Assembly: GCA_951406725.2 (NCBI GenBank)
Contig: OX597827.1
Location: 38,626,001-38,690,000 of the forward strand
DNA: 64,000 bases
DNA from: Octopus vulgaris
Taxonomy: Eukaryota
Reading direction: 5' to 3'
Part shown: positions 9,138-25,295 of the stretch, piece after piece
Layout: each line of letters opens with the position of its first letter
Numbering within the stretch: position 1 is the first letter of the stretch
Made by a program: the position numbers and the translations under genes
Notes under the pieces: model-generated
Told to the model about the DNA's origin: nothing
The model's database searches: none
Seen by the model: the letters and a program-made list of their open reading frames with translations, nothing else

Positions 9138-10114
9138 GTCAACTAAGAAAGCCATAGAAGTAATTTTGCTGGCTGAAGAGGCCTTTGACAGTTTGGTGAT
9201 TTTTAGAAATAATTTAGCTGCCCTCGTTCAAACAGTCACATAACAATATAGTTGTACTTTCACAGAAAAGTCTCTGTTTTAAAGACAATAGTAATTGTTG
9301 AAGATGATTTTTACTGCAAAGAGACTTTCACTATGTTAGTAATTTGCCAGTCTATCTATGGTGACAACCTTGGCATTATTCATGGATTTGAGAATTCAGG
9401 CAGCATGTCCAAGAGTGGATGACAAGTCTAGTATGAATGTAAAACCTCCTATTCACATTGGGCAGACATTTTTCAAACTCTGTGCTATTGCAATGAGAGC
9501 TCTGGAATTTCATAGCTCTTATCTTTCTGCTCAGCTTGTCTTGTGCCAGTTTACTCAGATGCTTTGGAACCTTCCTGATCATGCTGAGCTAGGTATCTCT
9601 CTTGGAAGCAAGGTTCTCCCATGATTCTGGAATGACATTTGTGTACCTTAACTGATCCATAAAGACTACTGTTTTAATGAAGTAATTAAATCAAACTCAT
9701 TACTTGGAAGGATGTAAAACAGTTGCCCTCAGCAGTATTGACGTAACTATCACAAAGTATTTAGTCCACTGCCCTACCAATTCTGGCAATCCACCTTAAT
9801 TTTGCAGTTCAATAATAATAAAATTAAACTACCATATTTTCTAGCATACAAATCAAATTTTTCTGACAAATTTACAGCCAAAACAAGATAGATTGACTTA
9901 TACAATGAAGATGATTTAGGAGGACTAAAAATTTCATGTGAAATACACCAGGGCTTAGCAAGATAATGGCGAGGCTTGAATCTTAACTCTACATACTACA
10001 TTGATTTGTATGCTGGAAAATACTGTAAAAGCTTATTTAGTTATCATTTTTGTCTGTTTCTTAATATGTATATTTATATATTTACTATTCTTTGATTTTT
10101 TTCTTTATTTTTAG

Positions 10115-10272
10115 GTTATTTACTTGGATTGCTTCTTGCCTTTGTTGCTTTAACTCTAATGCAAGCCGGCCAGCCAGCATTGTTGTACCTTGTGCCTACT
10201 GTGCTCTTGTCAGCTGTCATTCCATCTTGTTGTCGAGGAGAATTTAGAGAAATGTGGACTGGAGATTTTTTG
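10115..10272 (+). CDS. SPPL2: SPPL2-like exon with PAL motif
   Basis: ttttag|(G)YLLGLLLAFVALTLMQAGQPALLYLVPTVLLSAVIPSCCRGEFREMWTGDFL|gttagt; QPALLYLVP signature; phase 1 to 0. Confidence 0.96.
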
Positions 10273-10442
10273 GTTAGTTTGTTTTATCAATAAATCTTTG
10301 TGAGATGTGCATGTGTATGCCTTAAGTGTGTTATATAATTTAACAGGCTCCAAAGAGATATGAATTGGTCAGCATGAGCAAGACTAGTACCATTTAATAA
10401 AATTGACAAAAGAAGTAAACTTACACTACCATGTATTTATAT

Positions 10443-15343
<4,901 letters not shown>

Positions 15344-15520
15344 CTACAAAATTAGAAAATGGAGAAACATACTTAAATCAATCAAACATCAACCATCAGA
15401 TGATACCCAATCAATACTTTATTACACCATTACATAACAGCAAAGGCATTATACAAAATATATTGTAAATATAATTAGACAAGGAAATAGAAATATAAAA
15501 TATAATATATAATTATATCA

Positions 15521-15634
15521 TATCTGACAGCTGTTTCGGCCGTAAGGACAAGTATGCCTCATTTAACCTATAAGCCATATAAGGCAGGTATAAATGAGAC
15601 ATTAACAAGGATGTCCCACGGCCTCTTCAGAGAA
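15521..15634 (-). ncRNA. Type I hammerhead ribozyme motif with long stem II, in a Penelope-like/retrozyme-like element (~15345-15700)
   Basis: Minus strand reads ucu-CUGAAGA-ggccguggga...uccuuacggcc-GAAA-cagcug-UC-aga; intact core, G-C closing pair, palindromic stem III, GUC site. Confidence 0.8.
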
Positions 15635-15789
15635 TTTAATTTATTATAAGTGTGAAAAAAATTTTTTTATAAATATAAAAATATAAAATATAAAAACGTG
15701 TGCATAGACACTCATAATACTACACATATATATATTCTCATTAATACAATAATACAAAATAAACAAAACAAAATATATCAATATATATA

Positions 15790-16096
15790 TCTTTATATAT
15801 AAAATTGAAGTTGTGTGTGTGAGACTCTGTCTCTTCCGATTTAGATTCCTAACTACTCCCACATTTTGCGGTGCAGCTTAACCAAAAGCGGGTATTTTAT
15901 AGTCGTCAATCATATCGGGCCCTTCTGTGTATTAGCGCGCGTCTACAATGAGTCTACGATTTAAAAAAAAATTTACCATCATTTTTCCGCATTTTTAATG
16001 ATTTTTGCTCGGGTTATATAAGGGAAGTAACTTTCTAAAAATGCTTATATAGTTATTTCCCTTACAAACCTGAGCAACGCCGGGCGATACTGCTAG
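15790..16096 (+). mobile_element. Non-autonomous Helitron
   Basis: A|TC start, subterminal hairpin cctgagcaacgccggg, CTAG|T end, no TSD; CpG-rich relative to flanks. Confidence 0.75.
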
Positions 16097-16310
16097 TATA
16101 TATATATAAAATTAAGCACTAACAACAAAAATGTATAAAAACAAAGTAAACAGAACACAATTAAAAATTCACTTATCAGTTGTCTGCTGGTACCATTGCA
16201 ATTCTGATGTGTAAGACACAGTTGCTATCACCCAGTGGCATTAGCAACCTCCAGAAAGGGCTGCTTGGGGGTAATGCAGGGGAAACAAGATAAAAGATAT
16301 GCAAATTATA

Positions 16311-17540
16311 TTACATCTTCCCATAAATAATGCGTTTTTTTATACTTCTTTTATTTTTCAAAATTAAGATAAACATACTTCTTTTTTAATCTAAAATATA
16401 CTCTTCTGAAATTCACTTGTATGTGATGAAAAATACTCCTCCATTACTGTTCTGACCTCGTCTACAGAATTCATATTTTTTCTGTCCAAATGATTTTGAA
16501 GACTGCAGAGTAAATGATAATCAGATGGGGCAATATCCGGTGAATATGGTAGGTGGGGCATCAATTCCCATTCAAACTGCTCCATTCTTTGGAATATCAT
16601 TCTCGTTGTATGTGGCTGAACATTATCCTGATGGAAGCATATCTTTTATCTTGAAACCGAAGATGGTTGTTTTTCTTCTAGTGCTGACTTAAGCCGCTCA
16701 AGCTGCTTGCAGTAGATCTCCTTTGTTATCGTTTGGTTGGAGTTTAAAAGTTCAAAGTGGACTAAACCTTTCATATCCCACCAAACAGATAACAACACCT
16801 TATGTGGTTGAAGTCCTTTTTTAGTCTGGGGTGTCAGTGTTTCTCCTTTCCCTACCCACTGTCTTCAGCACTTGACATTTTATAGAGAACCCATTTCTTA
16901 TGAGTCACTATTCCATCCAAAAATACTTAATTTGTGAAATGTGACGGCAAAGAAGAGCACATATTCACTCTCTGCATGTGATCAGACTTGGAAAGTTTGT
17001 GAGGAACCCATTGACCCAATTTACTAACTCTTCTGATGGCACACAGTTGTTGATGAATGGTTCAATGACCAAACCCAAGCTTCTCTGCTTGTTCCTCAAT
17101 AGTTACAATGGGATTTTGTTCCACCAGGGTTTGCAGGATGTCCTCATTGAGCTCTACAGATCTTCCAGGACAAGACTCGTCTTCTTGGCTGTAGTTCCCA
17201 GCTCTGAATTTCTGGAATCACTGCTGACATTGGCTTATGCTTATTGTCTGATCCCCATATACTGCGTTAATATTCCTTGCACTTTCCATTGTGTTGTTGC
17301 CTTTATTGAACTCATAAGGCAAAATATGCCGAATATGCTCCTTTGTCACTTCCTTTATAACTTGGAAAAAATAACTGTTAAAATCGAACTGCACTCTTCA
17401 AAACTTGCACTAAGTAATTTTACCTTGTACTTATTCTATCTGCTTTTATAGCAAGTTGATGGGGTGGTTTATCCTGCCCCGCCCTCCAACTTTTAGTTCA
17501 TGCAATTGAAAAAATCAGCATTATTTATGGGATGACCCAA
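16311..17540 (-). mobile_element. Full-length decayed mariner (Tc1/mariner) transposon
   Basis: TIRs ttacatcttcccataaataatgc / gcattatttatgggatgacccaa flanked by TA; minus-strand WVPHKL and HLPYSPDIAPSDY transposase motifs; frame disrupted. Confidence 0.92.
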
Positions 17541-20249
17541 TATATAATTTGTGTGTATGCATTTATGCTTATATATACATAGTATTTATGATTAAGACAG
17601 CAAACAGGGAAACATTAATGTATTGCAACAAGGATGAAACAAAGCAGCATGGGGCAAATTTTACATTAAGACAATGCTGAAGGCTAAGAAAGAAACTGCA
17701 AAATTAGTTGTTTAAAAAATAGTCTTTGGGAGAAATACAAAAAAATGTGTTCTGGAAGACTGGCTACTGAAAACAGGGAGGAGAAATGTATACTAAGAAA
17801 GAAAGGGGATGGAGTTGAGAGAAAGAGGAAGGAGTGAGAAAAGAGGAAAGGAAAACACTTTAGGGTGAGAGAGAAAAAAGGCATGGTAGAGTATATGAGA
17901 AAGAAAGAGTATTTGAGATGGGGAGGTGACTTTATGCCAGGTTTTGAGAGGTAAAAGTATAACATAGGCTAAAGTATTATTAGAAAAGAAGGCCTGAAGC
18001 AGAATCTCTGAATGCTTGTGTGTATGTATACATTTATAATATATATATATAAAGACAGGGTTGTGAAGTTCACTCCTTAACCAAAAGTGTAGCAATGACC
18101 ATGTGGTGAAGTTTGCTTCCCAACTACATGGTTTCAAGTTCAATCCTATTGCATGGTACCTTGGATAAGTCTCTTGTATTTTAACCTGGGGCCAACCACA
18201 GCTTTGTGAGTGGATTTGATTGACAGAAACTGAAAGATGTTTATCGTTTGTGAGTGTTTGTGTGTATTTGTATATATTTAGCCAACTTCCTCTTTTCTAA
18301 CAGTCCCAACCAGGCCCTAGAAAAAGCCATGGTCACTGCCCTTCCTCTGTTGTTTAAGTTGTGTGAAATAAATACAATGACTTGGAGATTAAAATTCTGA
18401 TTTCAGTGTCATGAGTTCAGATGTTACTGTAATCATTATAGTCAGTGTTGCATCTCACACAAAGCTCTGTCGTTTTACCTGACTGAACAAGAAACAAGCC
18501 CTATAGTCAGTGTCTTAGTTACTTTTGTGTCACAACAGTTCAGGCTGATAAAGCAGACCTGTATGTTTGTCCATCAGAGCAATGAGAACTATCTAGTCAT
18601 CCTCAGTGAAGGATGACTGATGACTTGCACAGTGACCTTGTTTAAAGCGAAGAGTTAGACACCATCAACCTCACTCTCTTGTCCATGACCATCTCCATTC
18701 TGGTGGCAAGACCAGGTCAAGATGACTGGAGATAGACAGACACAGTGGTTGACCAAAATGTCTTGCTTGCCTCCGCTTGCTCTCTGCTCTTAGCAATGCA
18801 TTCCTGCATTCACCTTTCTCTCCATTGAATCATTGAAGTTTCTTCTGCAGAGTCTACCTGTTCCAGTCTTCCTAAGCATAGGTAGGCAAACCCTAGCACA
18901 CCAGGAGTTACATACCTGTTGGCTACCCTAGCCTGGTTTAGACCACCATTCAAAGCAGTTTATCAGAGTGTGACTGCAAACAACTACTTGGTCGCCACCT
19001 GGCACCCAACTCTTACCTGTGGCTCCAAAACAGACAGACCACCCCTAAAAGTGCGTTGTGTTCCCCCATCAAAGGTGCTAACCCTCCCTCACCTCTCAGA
19101 GCAGACCTATAGTAATGTTAAACAATTGAAAAAAAAAATGTGCAATCCAAGTAGTTATTGATTTTTCAAATATATTCTGACACTATTTAACTGGAGACCT
19201 CCCTGCATATTTTAAAATCTAGTGGTTACTCATATCAGGTGCACTGTAGCAGTCTGGACATTTTGTAGCCTCTCTATTGCCCAGTTGCCTTCTGTACACA
19301 TGTAGACACATGTCGTAATTAGGACCAGTGGCAAGCAAAGTGAACCTAATCTGAGCCCAACAATCTCGGTACAATATTTAAAAGTTCCTACTTCAGTGTT
19401 AAGTGGTTAGCTGTAGAAAGGATCATAAAGTTGTAAAATTGTTCCATAGGTAGTAGGAGCACTCCGTCGGTTATGACAATGACTTTCCAGCTGATACGAT
19501 CAATGGAACAGCTTGCTCGTGAAGTTAATGTGCAAGTGGCTGAGCACTCCACAGACGTGTATACCCTTAATGTAGTTCTCAGGGAGAGTCAACGTGACAT
19601 AGAGGCTGGCCCTTTGAAATACAGGTACTACTCATTTTTGCCAGCTGAGTGGGCTGGAGCAACATGAAATAAAGTGTCTTGCTCAAGGACACGGTGTGCC
19701 GCTGGGAATTGAACTTATGATCATGAGCCACATACCCTAACCATAGGTAAGTAAGGAGCCACAAACAGCCACTATATGGTTGCTTGACCTGCAAGAAATA
19801 GCAGCTAAATCTCCTAAGTCATACCTTAATGCCTTAAAATAACTCACATTGAACAGTGGAGTCCTAAATATGCAAAATACTGAAAGGTCACACTAAAGTG
19901 AACGTTTTTGAACCAAGGTCTACTTGGTCGAAGCAAACATTATGCTAGATAGCAGCAGAAACAGTTTTTTATCATCATTTAACATCTGTTTTCCATGCTG
20001 ACATAGGTTGGACTATCTACACACAAAATAAATCATCCAATGCATACTGGTATGGAAAAATAGTTGTAAAGAATGAAAAATAAATGGAAATGGATAAAAA
20101 AAATTTTAGTTAATAAAAAAACTTTTGGTTAATCAATTTGTAATTTCAAATTGCTAAAGGAAGTGGGAGGGGGGGGAATAAAATTTGCCTAGAAATAAAA
20201 AAAATGGAAAATTTGAATTGAAATGAATCAATCAAAATAAAAATCAAAT

Positions 20250-20798
20250 TCGATGACTGGCGCCCATGCTGGCAGGGTGCAAAGAGCACCATACGAGCGT
20301 GATCATTGACAGAGCAGCTAACTGGCTTCCATGCCAGTGGCATTTAAAAGGCACCATTCGAGCGTGATCGTTACCAGCATCACCTTACTGGCACTTGTGC
20401 CCATGCTAGTAGGGTGCCAAGAGCACCATCCGAGTGTGATCGTTGCCAGAGCAGCCAACTGGCTTCCATGCCAGTGGCACGTAAAAGAGCACCATTCAAG
20501 CGTGATCGTTACCAACATCGCCTTACTGGCACCTGTGCTGGTGGCATGTGTAAAAGGATTCGAGCGAGGTCGTTGCCAGTACCGCCTGACTGGCCCCCGT
20601 GCCGGTGGCATGTAAAAAGCACCCACTACACTCTCGGAGTGGTTGACATTAGGAAGGGCATCCAGCTGTAGAAACTCTGCCAAATCAAGATTGGAGACTG
20701 GTGCATCTATCTGGTTCGCCAGCCCTCAGTCAAAATCGTCCAACCCATGCTAGCATGGGAAGCAGACGTTAAACGATGATGATGATGATGATGATGAT
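20250..20798 (+). mobile_element. 3' end fragment of RTE-type LINE with ~122-bp internal tandem repeats
   Basis: Terminal part resembles reverse complement of 58061-58250 (aggaagggcatccagc...caacccatgctagcatgg...cgttaaacgatgatgat); repeated gcaccattcgagcgtgatcgttacca units. Confidence 0.8.
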
Positions 20799-20959
20799 CT
20801 TATGTTTCAGTTAAAACCTGACTTGGTTTTTAAAGATTTTAAAAACTTGTTTTAACAACTTTTAAAAATTGGTGTAGGAAAACTTTAGAAATCAATTTTT
20901 AAAATCTTCAAAAACTAAATTTTTTTTAAAAATCACTAAAAATTAGCATAAAATATTTA

Positions 20960-21221
20960 CTGTTCAATATTTAAGAGATGAGGAATTATGTACATTATTT
21001 ACATTCAATGGATATTTGTCCTCATCTTGTTTGTCGTTAACACAATGTTTTGGCTGATATACCCTCCAGCCTTCATCAGGTATCTTGGGGAAATTTGGAA
21101 CCTGGGTTCTCATTCGAAATTTCCCCAAGACACCTGAAGAAGGCTGGAGGGTATATCAGCTGAAACGTTGTGTTAACAACAAACAAGATGAGGACAAATA
21201 TCCATCGAATGTAAATAATGT
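20960..21221. mobile_element. Inverted (foldback) Penelope-like terminal repeat insertion with TSD
   Basis: Arms 20991-21100 / 21113-21222; 12-bp direct repeat ataaaatattta at 20948-20959 and 21222-21233; ~30-nt unpaired extension; each arm has a hammerhead motif. Confidence 0.75.
21129..21174 (+). ncRNA. Minimal type I hammerhead ribozyme motif (extra A after A9)
   Basis: gacac-CUGAAGA-A-ggcug-gaggguauau-cagcu-GAAA-cg-UU-guguu; stem I GACAC/GUGUU; mutated mirror copy on minus strand at 21039-21084. Confidence 0.7.
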
Positions 21222-22254
21222 ATAAAATATTTAATTTTGTAATGGAAAATATGTTTGCTCTTCCCTATTTTGTATAAATTATCATTCACTACTATTCACA
21301 GGCCAAATCTTAAATGGTATTAAATAAACTTGCTGGTTTAGTATTACTTTCCAAGTATAATGGGTTCAAACTCAGGTCAGAAACAGTACACTACTTCAAT
21401 GTGCCTCTCTCACACAACAGCTCAATGTAACTTTTGCACAAACAGCTTTTTCCTTCCTTCCTTGCTTTCTTTCTTCCATCCTAATGGTTCCCTAGATCAT
21501 TGTAGTGGCATAGAATATTCACTAGGCACAGATATTACTTGTATTTTCCTCTGTAGAGGAAGCTAAAAGCCAACTTGAGTGAATGGATTTATGTTGGTAG
21601 AAGTTATCACAGGGCTTTCTCACTTCACAGATCTTCTGTTCAACTCTAAAGTAGTTCCATTTGGAACCAAAAAATACAATTGGTATTTTCTGCAATTCAC
21701 ATTGCCTCAGTGAACTTGACATAACTCAAGAGAAAATAGTTTCAAATAAGATATTCCTCAACAAAAGATAGATTAGTAAATAAAACTGTTTCCCACTGAT
21801 AAGGGTATTGGAATTTTGAGTTATTCTACTCTTGCTTCAATTTACCTAACTTGGGTGAGTAAGGCTAAAGTAAACAGTCTAAAATGTACTGATGTCCTAT
21901 CTAGGGGAAATTTTAATTTCATCTCATCTGCTTAATGTTATGGATCTTGAACTAATCAAAAGTTCTGATGAGCTCCTTGGTGTTCAGGATACATTTAATC
22001 TGTTTTATTTACTATTGTCAAAGAAGCTAGGTGGTTATGTGGTGATCTTTCAGTCGAGGAGCTGCCTTGAGAAACCGAGTTACAAGTTCAAATTTTGTTC
22101 GAACCATAATGTCACATGATTCGTTAAAAGGTAGTAAAAGGGACCCTCTGTTTTAGGGAGAAAAACTATGAAGTTCATGCTCCTCCTCTTCCTTTTTTCT
22201 TTTTATTAAAAGAAATATATATATATTAGCAACAGAGACAGTATTAATACAGAG

Positions 22255-22503
22255 AGGTAATATTTACCCCCACTTATAACAAACTATACTGCAGCAGATA
22301 CCATGAGAGAAACTCTCATATTGGTTTTTGGTGCAAAATTCACTCTTGTTTACATCACTGGTGGAGATATAAATCCCTGCTGCCTCCAACATTGAGATAA
22401 ACAAGAGTGCATTTTTACACCAAAAGCCAATATGAGAGTTTCTCTCATGGTATCTACCACAGTATAGTTTGTTCCACATTTCAATGGGGATAAATATTAC
22501 CTG
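22255..22503. repeat. Long inverted repeat (~110-bp arms), MITE-like foldback
   Basis: aggtaatatttacccc...cactcttgtttacatca is the imperfect reverse complement of tgagataaacaagagtg...ggggataaatattacct. Confidence 0.85.
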
Positions 22504-24906
22504 TCTCTTGTCTCCCATCCCTTTGAAGATTATTCGTATAAGAGAATTGAAGTGGCTTCAACCAGTTTTGAAATTACATTCTGGTTTTTGGCTTGTTCTC
22601 ATAAGATTCCCTCTTGCTCAGCAGTGCTCATCGGGTGTTGTGATTGTGTATCCCTAATTCAGCATTGATCAACTAGTCCTATGGCAATCAGGTCGTCAAT
22701 CAACAACAAGGAAATCATCCACCACAGAGCTGCTGGTGGTGTTAATGTGTAACCTTTAGTCAACTCTGATCAAGATTTACAACTAAATAGCTGTTGTAAA
22801 GCGGTCTTTTATCACTTCTGTATCTATCTTTTGATGACAGTTGTTTCTCTGACAGATATTGTTATATTCTGAAGTCCTCAACAAGATGGTTCTTTCAGGC
22901 ACTGTACAACCCCACCACCACCATCATACAGAGTTATTATCCTCAAAAGGTTGGATTGTTATAACATCCACTCAGTATCACAGTATGATTGACTATATCA
23001 GCACAGACACGACTATCAACACAGTCTACGCGTACTCTTGACCTTCTTCTGTCGACCAGCTACTGGTCTATTTATTATGGCTGGATACTACCATTTTTAC
23101 CAGGAGTGTACAGTTTCACTATACAACAGTAGCATCAAGAATCCTTTGTTCCAGAAATACCAGAGTGTAAATTCCATCATGCAGTAGGCATACCACACTC
23201 CCTCCACTTTCCAATTTATTTTTGTACACCTGTTGTTGTTGTTGTTGTTTAACCCCAAATAGTGAAGATGCTTGGTGCAGTGGTTAGAGCACCAGGTTTA
23301 CAATTATGAGGTTGTGGGTTCAATTCCTGGTTCAAGTTGTATGTTGTATTCTTGAGGAAAATACTTTCATGTTGCTCCAGTTCACTCAGCTGTAGAAATG
23401 AGTTGCAACATCACTGGGGCCAATTTGTACCGGCCTTTGCCTTTCCCTTGGATAACATCAGTGGTGTGGAGAGGGAATGCTGGAATATATGGGCAACTGC
23501 TGGTCTTCCATAAATGACTTTGCCCAGACTTGAGCCTCAGAGGGGAACTTTCTGTGTGCAATCCCATGGTCATTCTGAGTGAAAGGGGTCTTTATCCTGA
23601 CCTGTTTTTTATATCAAGGACTGAATTATCCAATGCTCCCCCACCTTTTTCTAAATAAAGAAATTCAGTAGGGTGATGTTTGAAGAAAATTTTGCTATTT
23701 TTAGCAGGCTGGTTGACCATATAAAGGCTCCATAGCAATGGCCACAGTGGAAGTGAAAAAAATACACAGAGTATGACACTTGTTGCTCCTCTACATTATT
23801 CATGGTCTGCATCCCAGCACACTGTTTTAAACTGATTGTGTGTGTGTGTGTGAGAGGGAGAGAGAGAGGGGAGAGAGACATGTTCATTTGGACTGTTTGA
23901 GTTGGTGGTTTATTGAGATAGCATTTTAGGTTGCTATTACAGAACTGTTCTGAGGGTGATGAACTCTCTTGCATTCAAATTATTCTGTCAAATGTAATGC
24001 TTATTTATTCACATTGATTTGAATTAGTCATGCATTACTTTGTAGCTTAGATGTGATTATTTCTACAATAATTTTATAGGGTAAGTATGCGAGTTCAGAT
24101 CTGACCAGTTTGAACATAAAGCAGGTAGAATATTTTGGCCAGATGTGGTCAGTTTAAATACTAAGGGTTAAACCTGCTGTGGCAAGGACTGTAAAGGTTA
24201 GAAATTGCTGTGGTAACAAATTGTGTGAATTTTGTATGTCCAAAATAATCTTTCCCAGTCTGTTTGAGTGTTGGCTGTTGAGTACAATGATAGGTTGTAT
24301 TTGATGATGTTTGGTAGGTGCTAATTTAAATCGCTTTATGTTTTGGATGTGGTGGGCAGAGAGATACCCAAGTTTCTAAATGAACGATGGCAGTGTAATT
24401 ACACTTGTGCAGCTACATCTCAAACGTTTGGTTGAAGTAACTATGATAGCAGGTCTATATGAGGCCATTTGTTTTCTCAGGTATGGGAGGGCAAAAAGGG
24501 AGGTTCATGTAGTGATAAGTTAAATTGACTGACATTCTATCTATTACTTTTTCGATTTTTTTTTATGCCAACTGACCAATAGGCATCGTGTAGTTATTTA
24601 ATTTAGGGTGAGGGAAGAAGCAAGTTAGCTGTGAGAAATTTCTAAGTTGAGTTGCAGTTAATAAAATTATAATTTTTCCATACTATTTTTATATACACAC
24701 TAAATACTTTAAAAATAAGGTTTACAAAATTAACTCTATAATATTAACCCCTTCTTTCCTTGATAATCTTCTATTTTATTTTATATCCATTCAGGATATT
24801 TCTTAGCTCTTATTTAACAGCTAGGTGCCTTTTGTAGCTAACAATTCAACCATATGTTAGGGATTGGAATTCTTTTTTTTTCTTTTTTTTTTTTATATTT
24901 GTCAAG

Positions 24907-24924
24907 GAAACTGAAGGAAGCAAG
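24907..24924 (+). CDS. Candidate 18-nt microexon (ETEGSK) of SPPL2-like gene
   Basis: Long U tract, gtcaag|GAAACTGAAGGAAGCAAG|gtaatg; phase 0-0, in frame between the PAL exon and the last exon. Confidence 0.55.
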
Positions 24925-25157
24925 GTAATGCTATACTGTAACACAGCTTTCTAAACCCACATACAAAAAAGAATCCAGCTACTGACACACTAACACAAAA
25001 CCCTCAGGTTGTTAATACTCTGTAACACAAGACGTCTACCAGCTGCTACATTGTAACACGAAATTTCCACTCACTGATACATTGTAACACAAATATTTAG
25101 CCACTGCTGCTGCTTGTATTTTGTGATTTAATTTTTTTTTTCATTTCTCTCTTACAG

Positions 25158-25295
25158 AATTTTCTAAAAGCCTCACCTCCAGTTGAAGATAGATCTCTCT
25201 CCCAGGAGACCCTCCCAGATGATGTTGAAACACCACCCATTTCTACAAAGCCTGACCAGTCTAAAAGAAATGAGAACGACCACTTACTAAATTAG
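25158..25295 (+). CDS. SPPL2: SPPL2-like terminal coding exon (cytosolic tail)
   Basis: Strong acceptor ttctctcttacag|NFLKASPPVEDRSLSQETLPDDVETPPISTKPDQSKRNENDHLLN*; phase 0 fits; low-conservation tail, so homology support is weak. Confidence 0.7.
   Translation, partial: NFLKASPPVEDRSLSQETLPDDVETPPISTKPDQSKRNENDHLLN

Follow-up and report, generated by a model that had tools for sequence, protein, structure and literature searches.

The analysed window, a stretch of 64,000 nucleotides from Octopus vulgaris, contains part of an SPPL2-like gene and, within one of its introns, a short foldback insertion. The relevant features are listed below with window coordinates and strand. Family and pLTR positions refer to the 280-nt unit of the element, which is described further below.

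10115..10272, + strand: SPPL2-like exon (Peptidase_A22B), upstream of the intron holding the insertion
20948..20959, + strand: left TSD, core 20949-20957, outer letters common to the element ends
20958..21115, - strand: left arm, pLTR positions 123-280, 5'-truncated
20958..20990, - strand: PLE tail, family positions 248-280, on the left arm only, continuing the ORF start
21039..21084, - strand: minimal type I hammerhead, dead copy (G12>A, G16.2>A, helix I C>U)
21113..21115, no strand: head-to-head junction, arms overlapping by 3 nt (microhomology); unpaired loop 21101-21112
21113..21222, + strand: right arm, pLTR positions 138-246/247, without tail
21129..21174, + strand: minimal type I hammerhead, core intact, G10.1-U11.1, extra A, loopless palindromic helix III
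21222..21233, + strand: right TSD, core 21223-21231
25158..25295, + strand: next and last coding host exon, ending approximately at the stop codon; the intron is 10273-25157

The exon at 10115-10272 matches human SPPL2A (E 4.7e-10), which is its only PDB match. In the contigs of all four of the four runs guessed to be RNA, the exon end at 10272 is joined to 25158, and the string at 25158 is unique in the window. The intron has GT..AG ends, and an in-frame stop follows shortly after 25158. This joining places the insertion within the last coding intron with the + motif in sense and, together with the SPPL2A match, supports the intronic position sense to SPPL2 that had been claimed in a first-pass annotation of this DNA. 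The same intron contains a second, MITE-like hairpin of about 126 bp at 22313-22438, which gives miRNA model matches below the gathering score, and several kb of nearly pure A/T at 10001-16000 (GC content of 4.6% in 12001-14000). A different repeat, consisting of three degenerate 64-66-nt units with an ATG microsatellite at its end, occupies 20400-20800 and lies 150 bp upstream of the insertion.

The inverted arms pair between 20985-21100 and 21113-21228, that is, over 116 nt each with 10 mismatches (91% complementarity) and a loop of 12 nt, in agreement with the annotated length of about 110 bp. The predicted fold of the whole insertion has an energy of -177.7 kcal/mol. The insertion is bounded by the direct repeat ATAAAATATTTA at 20948-20959 and 21222-21233. 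The annotated 12-bp TSD is correct with respect to this repeat; the TSD itself has a minimum of 9 bp and a maximum of 12 bp, because the outer letters of the repeat match the element ends too. The asymmetric extension at 20958-20990, annotated as about 30 nt, is present on one side only and measures 33 nt relative to the end of the + arm and 27 nt relative to the commoner end point. Compared to the family majority, the left arm differs at 10 of 158 positions, five of them at CpG, and the right arm at two of 109, both CpG. A subfamily site, N7, is discordant between the arms (21138 and 21075: A vs T); this reflects either mutation after the insertion or the use of two template RNAs. The contigs of X16 and X17, two large runs whose kind is not recorded, link each unique flank with the element, and the ends of the insertion are therefore not an assembly artefact. 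No contig bridging the centre was among the pieces listed, and none of the 15 of 88 contig joints listed for 20805-21700, where matches are swamped by other copies, corresponds to an empty site. X16 and X17 share the PLE insertion, yet carry a 20-nt insertion at window position 21300 relative to the assembly.

The + motif at 21129-21174 comprises helix I (GACAC/GUGUU), CUGAAGA, an extra A, a helix II closed by G10.1-U11.1, GAAA, CG and UU, with a predicted cut at 21169/21170. The extra A is a feature that we take to be linked with the CChMVd hammerhead. Minimal hammerheads of PLEs are recognized by CUGANGA/GAAA/UH, an extra nucleotide between 9 and 10.1, and a palindromic, loopless helix III. 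All of these are found in the + copy and in the family majority; the - copy deviates in the core at G12. Both G12>A and G16.2>A of the - motif lie at family CpG sites, and C11.1>U of the + arm affects the same CpG as G12>A of the - arm. In the + copy the G10.1-C11.1 pair is replaced by G-U; the family majority has G-C, and the C is kept in 66/85 arms. The first-pass annotation had thus correctly read one hammerhead with an extra-A core in each polarity, an intact + core with a G-U closing pair, and a - copy decayed at CpG positions. Its emphasis on the extra A as a special feature is not upheld, since this nucleotide is present in 80/83 family arms and is given as conserved among the minimal hammerheads of PLEs (PMC4209133; articles cited here by PMC or bioRxiv number were available to us in part). 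The same paper cites the extra nucleotide only as seen in some canonical hammerheads. An Rfam scan of 18000-24000 detected no hammerhead at E<=1, as a minimal motif would lead one to expect; its matches were restricted to miRNA hairpin models that score below the gathering threshold. The folding energy of the 46-nt motif is not beyond that of shuffled sequences (z -0.96).

The motif closely resembles the minimal hammerheads of metazoan PLEs (Cervera and de la Pena 2014, PMC4209133), with which it shares a long helix II, a 5-bp helix I, the extra nucleotide between 9 and 10.1, a palindromic 15.2-16.2 and the occurrence as opposite-strand pairs. The published pairs are 100-700 bp apart, whereas the starts of the two motifs in the window are separated by about 90 bp; in the + copy, CpG decay has led to the G10.1-U11.1 pair. 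The main text of that article mentions neither octopus nor molluscs.

The insertion belongs to an abundant family. Exact matches to a 27-nt core number 6,086 in the 2.8-Gb genome, compared to 0 for a control, and a copy of the body was found in four of 40 arbitrarily placed 10-kb regions, which corresponds to about one per 100 kb. The 280-nt unit consists of a tRNA-like head (1-76), an AAT linker, a body, the hammerhead (C3 at position 159) and two 3' end points. The family majority was deduced from 11 of 30 full-length matches, the other 19 having been excluded as copies of one amplified composite. These 19 (L100-L111, L113, L116, L118, L120, L121, L125 and L126) share a flank on one or both sides; we read them as a 280-nt unit inserted into LINE-like sequence and then amplified as a composite. 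A family consensus without the core had been named as an observation that would speak against the ribozyme; the family majority retains the core. The copies decay near background rates. Among 87 arms selected without regard to the core, 3.4% of the non-CpG core positions are changed (28/823), compared to 4.7% elsewhere (324/6,899; p=0.11), and the core is thus slightly, but not significantly, better preserved than the rest. All 11 core positions are kept in 37/87 family arms, and G12 is changed in 16/85.

The 280-nt unit terminates 19 of 20 long ORF loci, and a 23-nt string linking its head to the upstream DNA occurs in 368 exact copies. This upstream DNA encodes the end of an ORF with an endonuclease-type motif, which we take to be of the GIY-YIG type; a Pfam search with the ORF of locus L255 yielded no GIY-YIG match at E<=0.01. 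Longer copies encode a reverse transcriptase (RT; Pfam RVT_1, E 2.4e-10). At locus L280 the hammerhead and the tail are in frame with the N-terminus of the ORF, and the tail-to-ORF junction is identical in L277. The likely start codon is at unit position 125, and the hammerhead overlaps the first ORF codons. As in PLEs, the repeat serves an RT-encoding ORF as its 3' pLTR and extends over the ORF start. The arms are therefore copies of the terminal repeat of an RT-encoding PLE, and the PLE origin that had been claimed for them is confirmed. The parent is known from partial copies, none of those assembled being intact and full-length. A cysteine (Zn-finger-like) linker is absent from the parent ORFs and present in the L091 and L094 PLEs of the same genome. 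By the criterion of PMC8557442, this absence points to the Penelope/Poseidon clade.

The other PLEs of the genome that were found by a Pfam GIY-YIG search were considered as partner of the insertion and rejected; their hammerhead is of another kind (U3-A8), and they lack homology to the arm. The PLE with the cysteine linker (L091:1245-3587, L092, L098 and others) has many uninterrupted frames of 781 codons, and its 3' end contains the U3-A8 hammerhead variant without the extra nucleotide.

A genomic survey for the same inverted architecture had been proposed. It was performed on a position sample, namely the first 30 core matches on contig C1, which represent 27 insertions after removal of three second arms; the sample covers the first 4 Mb of C1, where copies are about three times denser than the genome mean. 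Head-to-head pairs account for 17/27 of these insertions; the remaining 10 were scored as single, and three of those have an interrupted inverted partner. The head-to-head pair is the usual product of the family, and the architecture, which had been singled out as special, is its default. No selective explanation of the inverted pair is thus needed. The arms end 3' at positions 241-257 or 270-280 in 101/102 cases. Over 51 pairs, 47 have one tail, three have none and one has two. Outside the set retrieved with the foldback as query, 52 of 58 pairs have one tail, six have none and no pair has two, which would occur with a P of 2e-6 if tails were independent. A TSD score of at least 8 was reached by 36/51 pairs, compared to 20/200 random spans. 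The junction differs in every copy. N7 agrees between the arms in 44/46 unbiased pairs, which indicates that the arms stem mostly from one RNA or one master; it is discordant in two of the 46, as in the window insertion.

We consider it highly probable that the foldback consists of head-to-head, 5'-truncated terminal-repeat copies of a protein-coding PLE. A single abortive insertion event likely produced them, and they are now likely functionless and decaying. The element endonuclease would nick both target strands 9-12 bp apart, which would create the TSD. Each nick would then serve as primer for reverse transcription, which would begin at either of two internal sites of the element RNA, separated by about 30 nt; with one start site per arm, one arm would receive a tail and the other would not. 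Synthesis of the two cDNAs would be cut short at family positions 123 and 138, and the products would be joined via the 3-nt microhomology. The hammerhead would be present in both arms only because the copied stretch, overlapping the first ORF codons, contains it. Pairing of the arms in the host pre-mRNA would yield a duplex of about 110 bp, and incidentally this duplex would preclude the hammerhead fold.

The components of this scheme have precedents. Head-to-head pLTRs with an optional 30-40-bp tail at one end, a TSD near 9-10 bp, and first ORF codons carried by pLTR and tail are found in insertions of endonuclease-bearing PLEs such as Pen2a from Adineta (PMC3846280, PMC8557442). An inverted pLTR with a 31-bp tail and a 9-bp TSD is described in PMC3846280, and PMC8557442 notes that the PLE tail is often at a single end. 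Compared to these insertions, the arms in the window are cut to 110-158 nt, with no ORF body along, and the parent pLTR starts with a tRNA-like head instead of TATA/Inr-type or intron-overlapping promoters. Another close system is Poseidon_Ac (PAc) from green anole (Frangieh et al. 2024, PMC11167929), in which the hammerhead likewise lies over the ORF start, two internal RT start sites bound the tail, both strands of an AT-rich target are cut and extended, and a dimer is predicted. The likely start codon of the octopus family is 34 nt upstream of the core, whereas that of PAc is at stem II. The available part of PMC11167929 neither derives a rule of one tail per pair nor mentions a tRNA-type promoter. 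In a literature search covering few subscription journals, and neither Repbase, Dfam nor supplements, nothing was found on twin priming in PLEs. The single insertion is of little weight, being one among many thousands, and publications on PLEs already describe the extra A, the paired hammerheads on opposite strands and the tail. The two-primer reading ties the long-noted inverted PLE structure to RT start sites mapped in vitro.

The same element could also have produced the foldback from a single cDNA that snaps back through the 3-nt microhomology and is copied by self-priming, a kind of model put forward in PMC3846280. The junction in the window suits a 12-nt snap-back loop, junction overlaps of 1-5 nt are common in the family, and the N7 concordance in 44/46 unbiased pairs is compatible with one template. 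However, snap-back demands that the arm with the tail be the longer one. Among 46 clean pairs it is longer in 19 and shorter in 27; outside the foldback-query set the respective numbers are 14/26 and 12/26. Furthermore, N7 is discordant between the arms in the window. The arm-length data weaken snap-back as a general route, and we consider it unlikely for the window insertion. One tail per pair, unlinked to arm length, favours two target-primed events; priming probably took place twice, at the two RT start sites, and gave one arm each time.

Of similarly low probability is a tRNA-derived SINE as the origin: the 280-nt unit would be independent and would borrow only the PLE enzyme, and the foldback would be a truncated SINE pair. 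The unit does have a tRNA-like head, a six-unit tandem array exists at locus L099, and most intact heads are unlinked to an ORF; among the first 100, about 17 are estimated to be ORF-linked and 11 were seen directly to be so. [quoted passage not shown] A SINE should be non-autonomous and separate from its driver, and here the unit belongs to the driver as its pLTR. The smallest template used by PAc had to include 172 nt of the ORF, which is well beyond the RT start mapped at 111-118 (PMC11167929). Solo units of the octopus family stop at ORF position ~156 and may therefore be dead ends. Three tRNA-derived SINE families of octopus have reportedly been described by Ohshima and Okada in 1994. They resemble the unit in having a tRNA-derived head on a short high-copy repeat, a likeness by description and not by sequence comparison. 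One octopus family, OR2, is named as a CORE SINE (PMC4758252).

What is unusual is the parent, whose pLTR begins with the tRNA-like head. A and B boxes are located in this 5' part of the parent unit, which begins at tRNA +1; the head is absent from the window insertion. In comparison with seven distinct tRNA-Arg(ACG) genes of the genome, the only tRNA genes with which the head was compared, 45-53 of 77-79 columns match (z 6.1-8.7). The head was not called a tRNA by ARAGORN (14 loci; also at a lowered threshold) or by Rfam (4 loci). Where arms reach the start of the head, 42/43 stop no more than 8 nt upstream, some of these rows being non-independent; in the position sample the ratio is 17/17. 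Genome-wide, 2,862 exact head motifs compare to 899 for a motif 19-41 nt upstream, which is a smaller drop. The sense strand of the ORF contains only 33 runs of at least four T in 79,247 nt from 60 loci, corresponding to 0.42 per kb; expected are 169 by base shuffles and 85 by a first-order model, and two other PLE families of similar T content have 3.2 per kb. At the majority level, the ORF is free of T4 runs over about 2.5 kb. Synonymous-codon shuffles did not render the absence of T4 significant on its own (P 0.05-0.49 per ORF piece; 0.09 and 0.40). Given a codon-shuffle P of ~0.09 and the shared ancestry of the copies, the scarcity of T4 is suggestive, not proof. At G000:C2:211887730-211907118, 23 same-strand matches of the tRNA-Arg(ACG) motif within 20 kb constitute a tandem tRNA cluster, one of them confirmed by ARAGORN.

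The tRNA-like head, the copies mostly starting there and the avoidance of T4 suggest that the parent is transcribed by Pol III. A more comprehensive scenario, which we put forward tentatively and as somewhat more doubtful than plausible, is that the parent is read end to end by Pol III from a captured tRNA-Arg promoter. Its ORF strand would have been purged of T4 terminators, and its uncapped RNA would perhaps be translated via the hammerhead region. Transcripts starting at +1 would give rise to the mass of short SINE-like copies, and insertions like that in the window would record one RNP using each RT start site once. If the parent is indeed read by Pol III, it would be an autonomous retroelement with a captured tRNA promoter that blurs the line between SINE and driver, and translation of an uncapped RNA becomes a question. 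Cap-independent translation after ribozyme cleavage in RNA viruses (PMC13725137) is a possible parallel only. The literature search, limited as stated above, found nothing on a PLE with a tRNA promoter.

It had been proposed that the antisense arm would mask the sense ribozyme within the pre-mRNA and so neutralise an intronic self-cleaver; on this reading, the insertion in SPPL2 would be tolerated because its active ribozyme is sequestered. The insertion is sense and intronic, its + core is intact and its - core dead, the antisense arm is transcribed first, and Xenopus retrozymes are reported to be depleted from introns (bioRxiv 10.64898/2026.07.22.740005). In the prediction the duplex wins completely: with the upstream arm, the pair probability of helix II is ~1e-27 and that of the hammerhead helices ~1e-27 or less. 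This part of the proposal, the exclusion of the hammerhead by the duplex, is thus supported; a working cleaver that would have to be neutralised is not. The G10.1-C11.1 pair is lost. Even when the upstream arm is left out, the helices have a low probability of forming (0.003 for helix I and 0.02-0.04 for helix II), and the loopless helix III requires a second copy, its 4-nt self-duplex contributing -1.7 kcal/mol. For PLE minimal hammerheads, no monomer cleavage was reported in vitro (PMC4209133), and cleavage by the PAc hammerhead required the element's protein (PMC11167929). Moreover, the paired architecture is the default of the family. The self-cutting motif is likely inactive with or without its mirror copy, and sequestration, as predicted by the folding model, is probably redundant. 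We therefore regard tolerance through neutralisation as very unlikely.

A palindromic, MITE-like unit transposing as a fixed foldback can be dismissed: although 40/40 scored candidates of the whole-element search matched across both arms, that search selects for the shape of its query, and a fixed interior, symmetric ends and a fixed TSD length all fail, since junctions vary copy by copy, TSD lengths vary and the tail is at one end.

Non-LTR retrozymes of metazoans (PMC7229834; bioRxiv 10.64898/2026.07.22.740005) are likewise short units with hammerheads and are related to pLTRs. They form head-to-tail, same-sense tandems, whereas the insertion in the window is head-to-head and cannot release a monomer; with its arms inverted, it was rejected as a retrozyme. 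Six same-sense tandem hammerhead units plus a short inverted arm are present at L099:786-2274 (G000:C30, about 17291285-17292773), one of them a full 291-nt unit with tRNA head and five measuring 186-203 nt. This array is a retrozyme-like derivative of the pLTR, in which cleavage as a dimer may occur.
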